From an uncultured Bacteroides sp. (GTDB taxonomy: Bacteria; Bacteroidota; Bacteroidia; Bacteroidales; GCA-2748055), in NCBI GenBank assembly GCA_964575865.1, contig CAZNSZ010000003.1, positions 27,266 through 91,265 of the forward strand: DNA of 64,000 nucleotides, written 5' to 3'. Under the pieces are notes generated by a model, which was not told where the DNA came from, made no database searches, and was given only the letters and a program-made list of their open reading frames with translations. Below, in pieces: positions 27,022 to 36,657 of this stretch. Position numbers and translations under genes: made by a program. Every line of letters begins with the position of its first letter. The first letter of the stretch is position 1.

Positions 27022-27783
27022 ATGGCCGTGAAAATCCTGAGAAACTTCCTGGTCTTCTTCTCCGTCTGGCTGGCAGTCATGCTGATCTACACACTAACAC
27101 ACGGGGTCAATGACCTGGAGTACCTGTGGAAGTTTTCGCTCCTTCCCGGGGCATTCCTGGGCGTGATTGCTGTCCTGGCCACTGCGCTCCAGCAAATGTT
27201 TGCCGTAAAGAAAGGCATCAACTGGGTGTTTCTGGGCTTTGCGGTGGCACTGGACCAGGGGATCAAGATCTATCTCTTCTCCATCGACTGGCAATCCCTC
27301 TCCATCCCGCTGATCGAACCGGTTTTTTACATCGAGCCCGCCCAGAACACCCTGGGCTCTTACCTCTGGGTGCTCCTGGGGCTGAAGAAAGGATCGCACC
27401 TGGTCAATATCATCCTGTTCAGCCTGATCGGGGTGGTGTTCGTCGAAGTGTGGAGGTTCTATGTGAGCCGCAAGAGGAACAGCTTCTGGATCAACGGCTT
27501 CATTCACCTGTTCCTGGCGGGGCTGGGTGCCAATCTGATCGATAATGCCGTCTGGGGTGGATCCCTGGATTATGTGACCATCAAACCCTTTTACACCTTC
27601 GACCTGAAAGACCTCTACATCACCCTGTGCGAGCTGTTCCTGCTGACGGAGCTGGTGGACAACAGGCTGCTGAAAAGGTTCCTGAACATGCCCCGGGAAG
27701 ACAGCAGGAAACTGAACCGGGATTTCATTGACTTCGTCCGGCGCGACTTCGGGGTCGGTAAAAAGGATCCGGAGGATCAGTGA
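27022..27783 (+). CDS. signal peptidase II (LspA)-family membrane protein
   Basis: ALDQGIKIYL, NTLGSY, GANLIDN and FDLKDL segments parallel the LspA DQxxK, NxGxxF, GNxxDR and FNxAD regions. The C-terminal tail is charged. Confidence 0.5.
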   Translation: MAVKILRNFLVFFSVWLAVMLIYTLTHGVNDLEYLWKFSLLPGAFLGVIAVLATALQQMFAVKKGINWVFLGFAVALDQGIKIYLFSIDWQSLSIPLIEPVFYIEPAQNTLGSYLWVLLGLKKGSHLVNIILFSLIGVVFVEVWRFYVSRKRNSFWINGFIHLFLAGLGANLIDNAVWGGSLDYVTIKPFYTFDLKDLYITLCELFLLTELVDNRLLKRFLNMPREDSRKLNRDFIDFVRRDFGVGKKDPEDQ

Positions 27784-31226: not shown

Positions 31227-31318
31227 ATGTTAAAAGTGATACAACAAGATAGGGTAAACCGATGTTCATGCATCCTTATGGTAAAGACCAAATAATTTTC
31301 ACCAAAAACCGAAGAGGG

Positions 31319-32611
31319 ATGAAAACACAACACACAAAAAGAGGGTTCTGGCTGATGGCACTGGCCATGGTCCTTTCCATGGGGGTACGCGCACAGTCAG
31401 CTGCCGAGGACCTTGTATTCGATACACTCAATTACAGGGCTTTCTCGGGACAGGTCATTGACGCAGACAACAACCGCACACTTCCTTTTGCCACCGTTGA
31501 GGCCGTCGGAAGCAATGCGGCCACGGTGACAAACATCGACGGGGAATTCATCATCAAGCTTCCCATTGAAACCAGCGTATCCTCACTGAAAATCTCCTAT
31601 ATCGGGTACAGCAACAAAATCGTCGCACTGGGTGAATTCAGGGAAGGACGCACACTGACCGTCCTGCTGGAACCAAGTTCGATCCGGCTGCAGGAAATCA
31701 CCATCCGGCCCGAAGATGCCCTGAACCTGATCATGGACGCCCTTTCATACATCAAGGACAATTACAGTGAGGAGCCCATGATGATGAGGGGATTTTACCG
31801 GGAAACCATCGAACGGGGAAGGAATTACGTTTCCATTTCTGAAGCGGTGGTGGACATATTCAAGGGCAGCTATACCAATGTGTTCCAGACCGACCAGGTC
31901 AAGCTCTTCAAAGGCAGGAAAAGTGCGGATGTGGAGCGGATGGATACCGTGCTCTTCAAGCTGCAGGGAGGGCCCAATACCGCGGTGCTGCTCGATGTGG
32001 TGAAAAATCCCTATATCCTGCTGTCCGAGCAGTACAACGATATCTACGAATTCAGGCTCACCGATGTGGTCACCATCGATGAAAGGCTCCACTACGTGGT
32101 CTCCTTCCAGCAGAAGTCCCATGTGGATGATCCCTACTACCTGGGCAAGCTCTACGTGGACATGGAGAAACTGGCCATCACCGAAGCCGAATTCGAGCTT
32201 AACACGGAAAATGAAGAAGAGGCTGCCCGGCTGTTTATTCAGCGCAAGCCCATGAGCATGAGCATCATTCCCGAAAGGGCCGTATACCGGGCCAAGTACA
32301 CCATCGACGAAAACCGCTGGTATTTCACCTACGCCCGGGCTGAAGTGAGGTTCAAGGTGGACTGGAATAAGAAACTGTTCAATACCACATTCACCACCAT
32401 GTCAGAACTGGCCATAACCGACCGGACCTATGAAGGCATTGAAAAATTTGCTGCCAAGGACCGCTTCCGGCCCACGGATGTGATGGATGAGAAGGTCTAT
32501 ATCTTCTTCGATGAGGACTTCTGGGAAGGGTACAATGTGATCGAACCCGACCAGTCCATTGAGAGTGCCATCCGGCGGCTGAACAGGCAATACCTGCGAC
32601 GCAACGGGTGA
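31319..32611 (+). CDS. CarboxypepD_reg-like domain protein (paralog of 34255..35820, without STN domain)
   Basis: Signal peptide, then GQVIDADNNRTLPFATVEAVGSNAATVTNIDGEFIIKLP (carboxypeptidase-regulatory-like fold). The rest of the protein is collinear with the 34255 gene. Confidence 0.6.
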   Translation: MKTQHTKRGFWLMALAMVLSMGVRAQSAAEDLVFDTLNYRAFSGQVIDADNNRTLPFATVEAVGSNAATVTNIDGEFIIKLPIETSVSSLKISYIGYSNKIVALGEFREGRTLTVLLEPSSIRLQEITIRPEDALNLIMDALSYIKDNYSEEPMMMRGFYRETIERGRNYVSISEAVVDIFKGSYTNVFQTDQVKLFKGRKSADVERMDTVLFKLQGGPNTAVLLDVVKNPYILLSEQYNDIYEFRLTDVVTIDERLHYVVSFQQKSHVDDPYYLGKLYVDMEKLAITEAEFELNTENEEEAARLFIQRKPMSMSIIPERAVYRAKYTIDENRWYFTYARAEVRFKVDWNKKLFNTTFTTMSELAITDRTYEGIEKFAAKDRFRPTDVMDEKVYIFFDEDFWEGYNVIEPDQSIESAIRRLNRQYLRRNG

Positions 32612-32718
32612 ACCGGCGGAACCATCTTTGAGCAGCAACAGGGCGCTGTCTGGCTGAATTGTGTAACTTTACTGTCCCGGTACGAATCATTGCCAGACAG
32701 CGCTTCCTAAATCCGAAC

Positions 32719-33267
32719 ATGGTCCTGAAAGATCAACAGCAGCTCAGAAAGATACGCAGGGGTGACATCGCCTCATTTGAAATGCTTTTTCACCGGTACC
32801 ACCCGGGTATGTGCCGTTATGCCGAAAGCCTGGTGCGCCACCCCGGGGTGGCCGAAGAACTGGTACAGGATGTGTTCTACAACCTCTGGAAAAACCGGGA
32901 GACCCTCAGGATCAATAAAAGCTGGCAGGGATACCTGTACCGGTCGGTTTACAACAACGCCATGATGTACCTTCGAAAAGCACACCGGGAAAGGCCAATG
33001 GATGAGCAGCTTGGCAGGCTGGCGGAGGTTCCGGGACCTGATCCCTCGGATCAGATGGAATTTGACGAGGTTACCGACATGGTATGGAAAACCCTGGAAG
33101 AACTGCCGGAAAGGACCCGTGAAATATTCAGGCTGAACCGCCAGGAGGGAATGAAATACCGTGAGATCGCCGTCACGCTTTCCATTTCGGTGAAAACTGT
33201 GGAGGCGCACATGGGCAAAGCCCTCAGGGCCCTGAGAACAACATTGCAGAAATATGAACAAGAATAG
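32719..33267 (+). CDS. ECF sigma factor (FecI-like)
   Basis: Region 2 ELVQDVFYNLWKNRE and region 4 MKYREIAVTLSISVKTVEAHMGKA. Start moved to ATG 32719. Confidence 0.8.
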   Translation: MVLKDQQQLRKIRRGDIASFEMLFHRYHPGMCRYAESLVRHPGVAEELVQDVFYNLWKNRETLRINKSWQGYLYRSVYNNAMMYLRKAHRERPMDEQLGRLAEVPGPDPSDQMEFDEVTDMVWKTLEELPERTREIFRLNRQEGMKYREIAVTLSISVKTVEAHMGKALRALRTTLQKYEQE

Positions 33268-34246
33268 AGATATGGCGCTGGCCCGGTATCTGGCCGGTGA
33301 AATGAGTACCAGGGAGGAACTGGCTTTCAGGAAAAAACTGGAAGCCGATCCCGGTCAGAAAAAAGCACTGAATATGATGGAAAAGACCTGGAGCCGGTTC
33401 GACAGCGGCGAATCCTTCGAACCGGGGGATTCGTCGAAAGCCTGGGAGAAGCTGCACCAAAGGCTGAAAGACGATGGTCTGCTGGACCATCCCCCCTTCG
33501 AGGAGCGATCCGCCTGGCGGCCCTACGCCCTTCGGATCGCCGCAGTGATCGTCCTGATCCTGGCAGTGGGCATCCCCGCTGTCTATTTCGGGCTCCTGCA
33601 TGACCCCAGGGGGAACACTGAACAGCGCCACACTGCACAGCAGGGGATCAACGCAGTGGATCTGCCCGACGGCAGCAGGGTATTCCTGAACCAGGGAGCT
33701 TCCCTGACCTATCCCGCACGTTTCGACCGGGAGCGGAGTGTGAGGCTCAGCGGCGAAGCGTTTTTCGAAGTCATGTCCGATCCCCAGAATCCCTTCACCG
33801 TGCATTCTGGAAAAGTCAGGGTCACGGTCCTGGGAACCGCTTTCAACATCAAACCGTCGGCACAGGATGAAGAGATGGAGGTTTATGTGGAATCCGGAAG
33901 GGTGCGGATGTCCCTGGAGGAGTCCGGCCGTTCTATTACCCTCGGTCCGGGCCAGCTGGGAGCCTCCAGCCGGCAGGAACTGACGTCGGGCTCCCTAAAG
34001 GATCCCAATTATCTTTCCTGGAAGACAAAAGAGTTTAAATTTGTGGAAGCAGATTTGCTGGAAGTCCTCCGCGAACTGGCAGATTCGTACCATGTGCGGA
34101 TCCATACCGGGGACCTGGCACCGAACCAGATGAAGATCACCACTTCATACAGTGAACAGTCCATCGACGCCATACTGGAGACCATCGGTGCTGCCTTCGG
34201 GGTCACCGTAACCCACGGGGAGGACGGCTACCATCTGTCCAATTGA
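33254..34246 (+). CDS. FecR-family anti-sigma factor
   Basis: N-terminal anti-sigma segment, one TM helix (AAVIVLILAVGIPAVYF), a FecR-like periplasmic domain, and a C-terminal segment of the type that pairs with STN domains. Overlaps the sigma gene by 14 nt. Confidence 0.8.
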   Translation: MNKNRDMALARYLAGEMSTREELAFRKKLEADPGQKKALNMMEKTWSRFDSGESFEPGDSSKAWEKLHQRLKDDGLLDHPPFEERSAWRPYALRIAAVIVLILAVGIPAVYFGLLHDPRGNTEQRHTAQQGINAVDLPDGSRVFLNQGASLTYPARFDRERSVRLSGEAFFEVMSDPQNPFTVHSGKVRVTVLGTAFNIKPSAQDEEMEVYVESGRVRMSLEESGRSITLGPGQLGASSRQELTSGSLKDPNYLSWKTKEFKFVEADLLEVLRELADSYHVRIHTGDLAPNQMKITTSYSEQSIDAILETIGAAFGVTVTHGEDGYHLSN

Positions 34247-34254
34247 GAACGCAT

Positions 34255-35820
34255 ATGGATGAAACAATCAGGAGGTACTGGCACAGAACAATCCGTCTGG
34301 CCGTATCCCTTTTTGTCCTCATCCAGGGGTATCCCGCGCTGCTGCGTGCCCAGGACAGCATCCCCCCGGCGGAGGTCAGCGTGGTGCTGGAAGAGGGAAC
34401 CCTCAACGAAGTGCTGGACAGGATCACGCTGCAGACCGGTTACCGGTTCACCTACGATGCGGATCTGGTAGACGGTGCCAGACGGATCTCATTCAGGGCG
34501 GAAAACCTGCCCCTCCGGCAGACCCTCGATTCCCTGCTGCAGGATCCGGGGCTTGCCTACCGGCTCATCGACAGGAACATTGTGCTTTACCGGAAGAATC
34601 AGGCTCCGCCGGCTCCCCTGCTGGAGGAGATCGACCGTTCGATCCTGCAGGGAAAGGTCATTGACCGGAGGACCGGGGATCCCCTGGCCTATGCGACCAT
34701 CGCGCTTTATGGCACCAGCCTGGGATCGATCACCAACCAGGAAGGCGAGTTTTCCTTTAAAATACCCCGTTCCCAGTCCGATCCCATCCTGGTTGCCTCC
34801 TACATGGGTTACCACAGGGAGATCGTTCCGGTGGTCTTTCCCGCCGGGGAGAAACTTGTGATATCCCTGGAAAGGGAAACCATTCCCCTGCAGGAGGTCA
34901 TCATCCGGTTTTCAGATCCCGGCCTGCTTCTGAGTGAGGCCATGCAAAGGATCCCCGGGAATTACCTGACCGAGCATGCCACCATGAGTGCCTTTTACCG
35001 GGAGTCTGTGCGCAGGAGCCAGCATGTGCTGGTCTACTCGGAAGCAGTGCTGGATGTGGCCAAAGCCCCTTACGATTCGGAACTTCAGACGGATGCGGTC
35101 AGGATCGAGAAGGGAAGAAAAATTACTGATGTGACGTCACAGGATACGGTGATGGTGAAGCTTCGTTCCGGTATCAGCACGTCACTGAACCTGGATGTGA
35201 TCAAAAACCGTCCCGATTTCCTCCTCCCCGACTTCGCCGAACGGTACGAACTGGAATTTTCAGACCTGGTGGTCCACGGGGACAGGCTGGTGTATGTGAT
35301 CAGTTTTAAACAGCGAAGCGGGATCCAGGAGCCCTTGTTCCAGGGACAGCTCTTCCTGGATCAGGAAAACCTGGCCCTGCTGGCTGCCGATTTTGAATTC
35401 AACCCCGCGCTGATCCACAAAGCCCCGGGACTGTTCCTGGTGAGCCGGTCACCCGCCATCCGGATCAGGCCCCTTCAGGCCAGATACCACGTTGAATACA
35501 GGCAGCATGAGGGGAAATACCATGTGAGCCAGGTGAGGGCGGAACTGGAGATCCGGGTCAGGAAAAGGAGGAGATGGATCGGCGACAGGTACGCCATTTC
35601 CATCGAGATGGCCATTACGGACATTCTCCCGGGACAACGGCTCCGCATCGATCCTTCCGAAAGGGTCAGGCCAGGTGTGGTGCTGTCCGACGAGCGATTT
35701 GAATTCGACCCGCTCTACTGGGGCATCTACAACACCATCGAGCCCGAATCCTCGCTGATGGAATCCATCGAAAAACTTGAAGAAAGCCGAAACGCCTTAC
35801 CCCCAAACAACAACCCATGA
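34255..35820 (+). CDS. STN + CarboxypepD_reg-like domain protein lacking a TonB-dependent plug/barrel
   Basis: After the signal peptide, VVLEEGTLNEVLDRITLQTGYRFTYDADL...NLPLRQTLDSLLQDPGLAYRLIDRNIVLY has the STN/secretin-TonB N-terminal pattern. This is followed by GKVIDRRTGDPLAYATIALYGTSLGSITNQEGEFSFKIP. At 521 aa total it is too short for a TBDT barrel. Confidence 0.6.
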   Translation: MDETIRRYWHRTIRLAVSLFVLIQGYPALLRAQDSIPPAEVSVVLEEGTLNEVLDRITLQTGYRFTYDADLVDGARRISFRAENLPLRQTLDSLLQDPGLAYRLIDRNIVLYRKNQAPPAPLLEEIDRSILQGKVIDRRTGDPLAYATIALYGTSLGSITNQEGEFSFKIPRSQSDPILVASYMGYHREIVPVVFPAGEKLVISLERETIPLQEVIIRFSDPGLLLSEAMQRIPGNYLTEHATMSAFYRESVRRSQHVLVYSEAVLDVAKAPYDSELQTDAVRIEKGRKITDVTSQDTVMVKLRSGISTSLNLDVIKNRPDFLLPDFAERYELEFSDLVVHGDRLVYVISFKQRSGIQEPLFQGQLFLDQENLALLAADFEFNPALIHKAPGLFLVSRSPAIRIRPLQARYHVEYRQHEGKYHVSQVRAELEIRVRKRRRWIGDRYAISIEMAITDILPGQRLRIDPSERVRPGVVLSDERFEFDPLYWGIYNTIEPESSLMESIEKLEESRNALPPNNNP

Positions 35821-36173
35821 AATCAGTCATCAGATTGTTTGTTATCCTGATCACCATCACGGTGATCGTGGTTGCGTGGATCACCCACCGGCTGCAGGAT
35901 CCCACCGTTCAGGCCCTCATCGCCATCCTGGTCGCACTGAGCCTGGCGGTGTTCTTTATGATGAATATGCTGGAGCAAAGGGAAGAGCGGAAACGGAGGC
36001 AGGAACGGGAATCCCAGGTCCGGCCCAGACCCGGCCCCGGTTCCTCCAAACGAAAACCCTCCGATGTCTCATACGCCATGAAGGAGAAAAAGTCGGGACT
36101 TTCGTGGGGAGGCGGGAACATCAAGGGCAGCGAGGCCACCCGTGGAACCAAAAGAAAATTCCTGGGCAGGTAG
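35817..36173 (+). CDS. small membrane protein, unknown function
   Basis: Two predicted TM helices followed by a basic tail. Its ATG overlaps the upstream stop (ATGA). Confidence 0.4.
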   Translation: MKSVIRLFVILITITVIVVAWITHRLQDPTVQALIAILVALSLAVFFMMNMLEQREERKRRQERESQVRPRPGPGSSKRKPSDVSYAMKEKKSGLSWGGGNIKGSEATRGTKRKFLGR

Positions 36174-36234: not shown

Positions 36235-36657
36235 ATGAAGCTCAACATGGAGATCCCCGGGAACGTGCTCGATGAAATGGTGCAGCGCAAGCTGGAGGGG
36301 GAAAGCTACAGCCAGATCCGGAAAGAGCTCTCTGATTCCGGTCTCCGGGGCGATGAGCTTCGGAGCGCTATGAGGAAGATCGATGAAAAGGTCCTGGAGG
36401 AGGAACTGAACAGGAAAGCAGGGGACAGGACCAAACAATGGTACCGGGCAGGCATGTTCCTGGCACTGGTGGGGTTGCTCCTCACCCTGGGTGCCAGCCG
36501 GGGGATCATCCTGAACAACATCCCCCGGTGGATCCTGTATACCCCTTTCTTCGGAGGGATCGCCCTGATGCTCTACAGCCGCTTCGCCGGCAAAAGAAGT
36601 GATTCCGGCCGGAATGAAGGTCCGGGGCCCATCCGCCGTAAAAGACCCTTCAAATAG
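36235..36657 (+). CDS. membrane protein, unknown function
   Basis: Soluble charged N-terminal half followed by two TM helices. Confidence 0.4.
   Translation: MKLNMEIPGNVLDEMVQRKLEGESYSQIRKELSDSGLRGDELRSAMRKIDEKVLEEELNRKAGDRTKQWYRAGMFLALVGLLLTLGASRGIILNNIPRWILYTPFFGGIALMLYSRFAGKRSDSGRNEGPGPIRRKRPFK

Follow-up and report, generated by a model that had tools for sequence, protein, structure and literature searches.

How can a FecR-type anti-sigma factor be controlled when the gene that follows it encodes no outer-membrane barrel? The question is raised by a four-gene locus in a 64,000-nucleotide stretch of DNA (hereafter, the window) from an uncultured Bacteroides sp. (GTDB lineage Bacteria; Bacteroidota; Bacteroidia; Bacteroidales; GCA-2748055), corresponding to positions 27,266 to 91,265 of contig CAZNSZ010000003.1 in assembly GCA_964575865.1. 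To our knowledge, FecR cell-surface signalling is understood almost entirely through TonB-dependent barrels, and VreA is the only barrel-less receptor to have been described. Arranged in tandem on the + strand at positions 31319–35820 of the window, the genes encode, in this order, an exported protein (A), an extracytoplasmic function (ECF) sigma factor, a FecR-type anti-sigma factor, and a second exported protein (B), which is a paralogue of A with an additional STN domain. We propose that signalling at this locus is of the FecR type and runs through a transducer that lacks a barrel and probably binds lipid, the front end of a TonB-dependent transducer (STN, N-terminal extension and TonB box) having apparently been moved onto a different domain.

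Gene A (31319–32611) encodes 430 aa when read from the ATG that is conserved in relatives. It is followed by the genes for the sigma factor (32719–33267; 182 aa, with the start set by 182-aa orthologues), the FecR protein (33254–34246; 330 aa) and B (34255–35820; 521 aa). The sigma and FecR reading frames overlap by 14 nt, and the ATG of B lies 9 nt past the FecR stop, with an alternative TTG at 34243 that would extend the protein to 525 aa. The sigma factor is of the Bacteroidetes type (TIGR02985 in NCBIfam, E = 3.6e−49; Sigma70_r2 and r4_2 in Pfam). The FecR protein contains both a FecR domain (PF04773, aa 126–218, E = 1.7e−14) and FecR_C (PF16344, aa 261–320, E = 1.4e−6), and its sequence can be read as a cytoplasmic N-terminal region followed by one transmembrane segment at about aa 87–113.

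Both exported proteins begin with signal peptides of the signal peptidase I (SPase-I) type (…VRA/QS in A, …LRA/QD in B). In B this is followed by an STN domain (34441–34596, aa 63–114; PF07660, E = 4.5e−11, 42.8 bits against a curated cut-off of 28.4) and by a CarbopepD_reg_2 domain, the N-terminal extension (NTE) of SusC-type proteins (34645–34905, aa 131–217; PF13715, E = 4.8e−15). The STN segment is modelled as a beta-alpha-beta fold over about aa 40–113, with an AlphaFold predicted local distance difference test (pLDDT) score of 91–96, and its Foldseek matches include the signalling domains of FecA, FpvA and FoxA as well as secretin N0 domains. A profile search with the NTE of B reaches the NTE of the solved SusC/RagA structures 9hfj, 6ytc, 8aa4, 5t3r and 6sli, and the match of B to the SusC/RagA model TIGR04056 is confined to model positions 3–83 of 981. 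Neither A nor B matched Plug (PF07715, sought at E ≤ 0.1) or TonB_dep_Rec in Pfam, and no plug or barrel remnants were found downstream of B. The remainder of B (34918–35817, aa 222–521) falls into no Pfam family. In A, the Pfam search returned CarbopepD_reg_2/NTE (aa 43–128) as the only domain and gave no STN match; a TonB-box-like strand, LQEITIR, and a C-terminal domain with the same predicted fold as that of B follow. BLASTP aligned the two proteins at 34% identity over 398 aa (E = 8e−74, 2 gaps), from the NTE through the entire C-terminal part. A preliminary description of the locus, made from the letters alone, had recognised the 9-nt gap, the order of signal peptide, STN-like segment and CarboxypepD_reg-like domain in a protein too short for a plug and barrel, and the collinearity of its C-terminal part with an upstream, STN-less paralogue; all of these observations hold, the STN being confirmed by profile search and the paralogy by formal alignment, and the shared motifs that it quoted are genuine.

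For this architecture, contig C122 of the same genome provides a reference, a canonical sigma-FecR-SusC-SusD cluster. Its SusC carries STN at 64–101, CarbopepD_reg_2 at 113–194 and Plug at 201–306 (E = 8.3e−20), and because the domain order matches, the front end of B can be described as the layout of a SusC transducer up to the start of the plug. The correspondence appears to extend to the TonB box. Directly after the NTE, B continues with …IPLQEVIIRFSDP and A with …IRLQEITIRPEDA, where the SusC of C122 has …KLEEVVVIGYG. The strand LQEVIIR of B (34888–34908, aa 212–218) takes the position of the SusC TonB box and aligns with LEEVVVIGYG of C122 and with VDEVVV, the experimentally defined TonB box of Bacteroides thetaiotaomicron Bt1763, which also directly follows an NTE (PMC7782687). 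It is strongly conserved across the A and B families (L212 99%, E214 90%, I217 91%, R218 100%), and its pLDDT of 64 is as expected of a flexible linker. We consider LQEVIIR possibly TonB-box-like on the strength of this alignment, and TonB binding putative. The locus resembles the Bacteroidota form of FecI/FecR/FecA-type systems in its TIGR02985 sigma factor, its FecR and FecR_C domains and its order of sigma, FecR and STN protein, and B shares with STN-bearing SusC an identical front end of signal peptide, STN and NTE, to which the possibly TonB-box-like strand may be added. It differs in that B lacks the plug and the 22-strand barrel and is not accompanied by a SusD; at 521 aa it is about half as long as an STN-bearing TonB-dependent transducer (~1000 aa), and behind the NTE some 10 strands are predicted instead of 22, in what is probably a LolA-like domain. 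It also differs in being headed by an STN-less paralogue, with no transporter in cis.

Eighty loci were fetched from species-representative genomes and their open reading frames (ORFs) classified. A B-type gene was present in 76 of the 80, the FecR gene stood immediately 5' of it in 73 of the 74 loci where this could be tested, and the complete order A-sigma-FecR-B was kept in 67 of 68. The order holds even at 30–35% identity of B, in metagenome-assembled genomes (MAGs) labelled Rikenellaceae, Lentimicrobiaceae, Prolixibacteraceae and Salinivirgaceae. Since only ~5–20 nt separate the stop of A from the start of the sigma gene in such distant clades, we regard the four genes as one operon with A as its first member. 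The paralogue reported just upstream of the sigma gene is therefore more precisely the gene with which this conserved operon begins, and the wiring of an STN protein to the sigma-FecR pair is borne out by the strict gene order, with the signalling itself putative.

At the protein level, relatives of B with an identical set of Pfam domains form 334 clusters of ~517 aa. All come from uncultured Bacteroidales/Bacteroidota and are annotated only as 'carboxypeptidase-like regulatory domain-containing protein'. A HMMER search with the C-terminal 297 residues retrieved 1099 representatives at 50% identity, 635 of them at E ≤ 1e−10. These fall into two length classes, a B type of ~510 aa with the domain starting at about residue 225 and an A type of ~430 aa with the domain starting at about residue 135; among 81 diverse representatives, the NTE was found in all 81 and a Pfam-detectable STN in 28. 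The A family is larger and more conserved than the B family (~70% versus ~60% identity among the same contigs). In a sample of 401 genomes from the phylum, 18 carried the C-terminal domain. Many of these 18 had solitary A-type genes without sigma or FecR, and in both sampled genomes with a B-type gene it immediately followed a sigma-FecR pair. By analogy, the A type may be said to stand to the B type as an ordinary SusC stands to an STN-bearing SusC. The family as a whole is large but mostly confined to uncultured anaerobic Bacteroidales. It could still be argued that the gene for B is merely a TonB-dependent transducer gene in decay, truncated to a pseudogene, and the common N-terminal layout is the only feature that suggests so. 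We give this idea virtually no credence: the length and architecture of B are constant in hundreds of clusters down to 30% identity, no remnants of a plug or barrel follow it, and the intact paralogue A carries the same C-terminal domain. A truncated transducer, which the preliminary description had named as what would undo its proposal, is accordingly ruled out by the conserved family, its length classes and its gene order.

What, then, does the transducer front end carry in place of a barrel? Sequence-based searches gave little purchase on the C-terminal domain. With ten diverse examples, Pfam returned no match at E ≤ 10 (DUF5686 matched only the DUF5686 control), and a profile search against PDB sequences recovered the NTE and weak STN matches and nothing for the C-terminal domain. 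Using an alignment of 146 sequences, AlphaFold2 modelled full-length B with a pLDDT of 82 and the C-terminal domain alone with a pLDDT of 89 and a predicted template modelling score (pTM) of 0.86. The predicted domain opens with a helix and three long strands; three short helices separate these from seven further long antiparallel strands, and a less confident tail of ~60 residues with an invariant FDPxFWGxYNxIEPE motif closes it. The top Foldseek matches in the PDB (probability 1.0, E between 4e−7 and 8e−6) were DUF1329 (4z48), MucB with MucA (6in9), RseB (2v42, 3m4w, 2p4b), Porphyromonas gingivalis LolA3 (9tp6), NE2245 (3buu), and the lipid-binding barrels of MTP, lipovitellin and ApoB, with LprG, LppX and LolA at lower ranks. 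The proteins behind the top matches are soluble open beta-barrels carrying lipids. On the basis of these models, we consider a LolA/RseB-like fold for the C-terminal domain likely, though not assured. The domain had earlier been left as one of unknown function; this still applies insofar as it has no Pfam family, and a predicted fold can now be proposed.

The same model could be read differently, with A and B as outer-membrane proteins whose C-terminal ~240 aa form a small closed barrel of 10–12 strands, B then being a plug-less, surface-sensing transducer pulled by TonB. About ten long amphipathic antiparallel strands are indeed predicted, lower-ranked Foldseek matches include OpdO, the NalP translocator and OmpG, and an NTE with a TonB-box-like strand is otherwise known only from outer-membrane transporters (PMC7782687). 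However, the matches to outer-membrane barrels have E ≥ 1e−3 and probabilities of 0.1–0.66, compared with 1.0 for the soluble LolA superfamily, and the N-terminal helix and the lid helices between strands are typical of LolA. There is no aromatic beta-signal at the C-terminus either: members of the family end in K, E, N, R, Q or D, never in an aromatic residue, so that charged or polar ends follow a helical tail of ~80 aa. A 773-aa fusion protein from Bacteroidota (L027:1138-3459, genome G159) places the LolA-like domain between CarbopepD_reg_2 and a Beta-lactamase-family serine hydrolase domain (E = 1e−63). Because of the non-aromatic C-termini, the helical tail and the position of the domain upstream of the hydrolase in this fusion, we favour a soluble protein over an integral barrel and regard the outer-membrane reading as distinctly unlikely. 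A lipobox-like motif occurs in only 2 of the 146 members. Of the barrel-less cell-surface sensor that had been envisaged for this locus, the absence of a barrel is retained, while the cell-surface location gives way to a more likely periplasmic one.

A remote match was obtained to DUF5686. An hhalign comparison of the family profile with a DUF5686 protein of the same genome gave a probability of 96% (E = 2.9e−9) over the NTE plus ~170 residues of the C-terminal domain, the NTE contributing part of the score, and the DUF5686 model was touched by 6 of the 81 family representatives. Since the alignment extends past the NTE, DUF5686 (PF18939) appears to be a distant relative of the domain, sharing the N-terminal CarbopepD_reg_2 and a following region remotely homologous to its first ~170 residues; DUF5686 proteins differ in their size (~800–900 aa), a long extra C-terminal part, and the lack of an STN domain and of any link to sigma/FecR genes. 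Among side variants of the family itself, a 901-aa protein (P0274) has an STN-like N-terminus, an NTE, and two LolA-like domains in succession, a tandem duplication.

Conservation is also seen in the region upstream of the operon. A two-block, ECF-type promoter candidate lies about 40 nt 5' of the ATG of A (31249–31279, + strand), with ATAGGGTA at 31249–31256, a gap of 13 nt, and GCATCCTTAT at 31270–31279. The motif precedes A in nearly all related loci, even at ~30% protein identity, as ATAGGGTA, 13 nt and GCATC(Y)T in the window's genus and as ATAGGGTA, 14–15 nt and GGTCWTA in distant clades. Non-coding conservation at this level of protein divergence, together with the fixed two-block geometry, gives it the look of an autoregulated ECF promoter, and ATAGGGTA-N13-GCATC is probably the promoter recognised by this sigma factor. 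A scan with a 15-base pattern yielded 18 matches in 11 of 21 related genomes, all 11 belonging to the same genus, compared with none for the reversed control pattern and a chance expectation of ~0.2 in total. Eleven of the 18 precede A orthologues, three precede orthologous genes for PD40 beta-propeller lipoproteins, two lie in front of genes for a 225-aa NTE+Plug protein and one in front of a Beta-lactamase-family lipoprotein gene, and the last has no clear ORF behind it.

In the window's own genome, the second exact copy of the motif, AATAGGGTAAATAACCGTTAATGCATCCTAT, is found on another contig (C43:7144-7169), 32 nt 5' of the gene for a 352-aa PD40 lipoprotein, which is followed by a gene for a 726-aa DUF5916 outer-membrane protein; PD40 orthologues in two sister genomes (L148, L149) also lie behind the motif, and the Beta-lactamase-family lipoprotein gene behind it belongs to a sister genome (L141). 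The NTE-Plug proteins, found behind the motif in sister genomes G405 and G406, are barrel-less as well: at ~220 aa, they consist of a signal peptide, CarbopepD_reg/NTE and Plug only, and are another case of SusC front-end parts without a barrel. Unlike these two sister-genome orthologues, both NTE-Plug genes of the window's genome (C56:3998-4636 and C138:6-644) lack the motif. Two distant genomes with the operon carry a second copy of the motif in the form TAGGGTA-N14-GGTCTTA (G422 C1:2557897; G423 C10:456651), followed by a unit of ~80–100 nt with no convincing ORF that ends in a GC-rich hairpin and a run of T. This unit could be a sigma-dependent small RNA, for which the sigma-E-dependent small RNAs of enterobacteria offer a likeness.

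How would such a system work? We lean, if only slightly, towards reading A-sigma-FecR-B as a self-contained, probably autoregulated ECF signalling operon in which B, without a barrel and located in the periplasm, acts as the transducer and signals the presence of a hydrophobic ligand to FecR. B would be exported by its Sec/SPase-I signal peptide and would most likely stay in the periplasm, where its STN domain would dock on the C-terminal periplasmic domain of FecR, like the STN of FecA and SusC-type transducers, and stabilise the anti-sigma factor; contacts of this kind are known from FecA/FecR and PupB/PupR (PMC7186176). The LolA/RseB-like open barrel would bind a hydrophobic or amphipathic envelope molecule, such as a lipid, a lipoprotein acyl chain, a lipopolysaccharide (LPS) intermediate or a lipopeptide. 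Binding would alter the STN-FecR contact, possibly aided by TonB acting on the LQEVIIR strand; degradation of FecR would follow, releasing the sigma factor to transcribe from the ATAGGGTA-N13-GCATC promoter. The operon would in this way drive itself, with the STN-less paralogue A as its first product and likely effector, and a few unlinked genes with the same motif would be co-induced, in this genome that of the PD40 beta-propeller lipoprotein.

By analogy, such a mechanism would join two known principles, the STN-FecR relay and, as exemplified by RseB/RseA and MucB/MucA, an anti-sigma factor under a LolA-like guard or sensor. Like RseB and MucB in the sigma-E/AlgU systems, B would be a periplasmic protein of the LolA superfamily that determines, depending on lipid- or LPS-type ligands, whether the anti-sigma factor on which it acts is proteolysed. 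The leading structural matches of the domain include RseB and MucB, although these matches are weak (TM-scores of 0.2–0.25, without sequence similarity), and RseB binds RseA directly, without STN, NTE or TonB box, whereas the anti-sigma factor here is of the FecR type.

Several points weigh against the proposed transducer. Docking of STN on FecR is proposed for this system by analogy. The C-terminal domain gave no match to the LolA, RseB or DUF1329 sequence families, and the structural matches, with TM-scores of 0.2–0.37 and root-mean-square deviations of 11–18 Å, reflect a resemblance of topology with poor global superposition. Its first strands contain invariant charged residues, R249/E250 (FYRE) and E263 (SEAV), which are unusual for a pure acyl-chain carrier and could mark an enzyme or polar-ligand site. 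The regulon outside the operon is small and varies between genomes, leaving A as the constant output, and the RNA evidence is minimal, consisting of two short contigs from one metatranscriptome that match at 100% identity inside gene A only.

The charged residues lead to another reading, in which the C-terminal domain is an enzyme or a module for polar ligands such as peptides or cell-wall fragments, and the operon is a unit for catabolism or repair that its substrate induces, much as in a polysaccharide utilisation locus. The invariant R, E and E of the first two strands (FYRE…SEAV) would fit this, as would the S9 peptidase gene directly after B in close relatives, the PD40 and Beta-lactamase-family lipoprotein genes behind the same motif, and the Beta-lactamase-family fusion. 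We nevertheless think it quite unlikely, as none of the significant structural matches has an enzyme fold and the associations with hydrolases are patchy across genomes.

A further alternative keeps B in the signalling chain and changes its role to that of an RseB-like guard, whose STN would be bound constitutively to FecR and shield it from proteolysis; sensing would fall to another component, for instance A, FecR or a receptor encoded elsewhere, and the LolA-like domain would have a separate housekeeping role that it shares with A. TonB-dependent transducers are in fact known to protect their anti-sigma factor through STN contact in the absence of signal (PMC11637429). The occurrence of A-type proteins alone, without sigma or FecR, in many Bacteroidota points to a function of the domain independent of signalling, and the higher conservation of A is in line with this. 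On the other hand, the STN form is found only beside sigma-FecR, the pattern expected of a dedicated signalling derivative, and RseB is itself both a guard and a ligand sensor, so that the two readings overlap. We consider a purely guarding role unlikely.

If the transducer reading is taken one step further, STN, NTE and TonB-box modules would equip soluble periplasmic LolA-like proteins for TonB-energised lipid handling and envelope surveillance. A pull on B would then turn ligand binding into cleavage of FecR, and a pull on A would power the extraction or delivery of a lipid or lipoprotein. This extension is speculative and on the unlikely side; if true, the operon would be the equivalent in Bacteroidales of RseB/sigma-E, and in some lineages a small-RNA arm might belong to it.

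Among described proteins, the nearest precedent for B is VreA of the Pseudomonas aeruginosa PUMA3 system (VreA-VreI-VreR), a mostly soluble, periplasmic protein with an STN domain and no barrel, with no known signal, whose gene also lies beside those of an ECF sigma factor and a FecR-type regulator (PMC2729926). VreA belongs to another phylum, its sequence relationship to B is limited to the STN, and it has features of its own, being ~23 kDa in size with a TolA/TonB-like C-terminal domain and neither an NTE nor a LolA-like domain. In gene order, too, the systems differ, as vreA comes first and there is no STN-less paralogue. A literature search found no paper describing the A-sigma-FecR-B architecture.

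The four-gene operon is fixed across many anaerobic Bacteroidales families, those named above (Rikenellaceae, Lentimicrobiaceae, Prolixibacteraceae and Salinivirgaceae) and others. If the proposed mechanism is correct, it would provide a candidate envelope or lipid sensor in a phylum whose envelope-stress signalling is poorly known, and a test case for the role of the SusC NTE and TonB box without a barrel. It would also offer a compact set of sigma factor, anti-sigma factor, sensor and promoter with a well-defined motif, usable as an orthogonal switch.

Experiments are made feasible by cultured Marinilabiliales with a related sigma-FecR-B-like module. The B-like protein, of ~490 aa, occurs in Carboxylicivirga linearis, C. 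sediminis, Marinilabilia rubra and Geofilum rubicundum, and Pfam detects no STN in its N-terminal ~100 residues. The arrangement, seen in C. linearis (GCA_018271995.1) and in genome G243, which is of the same order as the window's genome, is sigma, FecR, B-like (486–494 aa), an Omp85-superfamily barrel (386–417 aa) and DUF4494, with no A. BLASTP of the Marinilabiliales Omp85 protein against DUF5686 showed no similarity, which leaves the idea of a split machine of LolA-like and Omp85 parts without support.

As for the surroundings of the operon, no transporter, SusD or other partner is conserved in cis in the flanks of the fetched loci. What these flanks contain in distant clades is either housekeeping genes, for Dxs, RRF and radical SAM proteins, or a gene of the OmpA family in convergent orientation, and a conserved partner beside the module was discarded as a candidate because the flanking conservation amounts to housekeeping synteny or this convergent gene. 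The preliminary description had further suggested that two small membrane proteins are co-transcribed with B. The first is a 118-aa ORF (35817–36173, + strand), whose ATGA overlap with the stop of B at 35817–35820 is real; it is absent from relatives and probably lies outside the system. The second is a 140-aa membrane protein (36235–36657, + strand) with a weak DUF2207_C match, kept only in the closest clade, where its gene usually stands just 5' of a Crp-family regulator gene; it, too, falls outside the conserved module. At the place of the 118-aa ORF, close relatives carry the gene for an S9 prolyl-oligopeptidase-family protein with a beta-propeller directly after B (L011:9591-11480, L013:9692-11681), with no copy of the promoter motif upstream of it.

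The spacer between A and the sigma gene, ~100 nt long, contains a conserved hairpin (32640–32706, + strand; arms at 32640–32654 and 32692–32706) that is restricted to the window's clade. It has 12–15 bp and a loop of ~40–57 nt with a conserved TTGTGTAACTTTAC / GAATTGTGTAACTTTACC element. RNAalifold on 15 loci supported 12 pairs, four of them with compensatory changes, and relatives show a U-rich tail. Judged from the sequence, the hairpin may act as a terminator or attenuator, separating expression of A from that of sigma-FecR-B, may hold a promoter in its loop, or may be a promoter-flanking repeat. The organism of the window itself was found in metagenomes from ponds, sediment and aquaculture.

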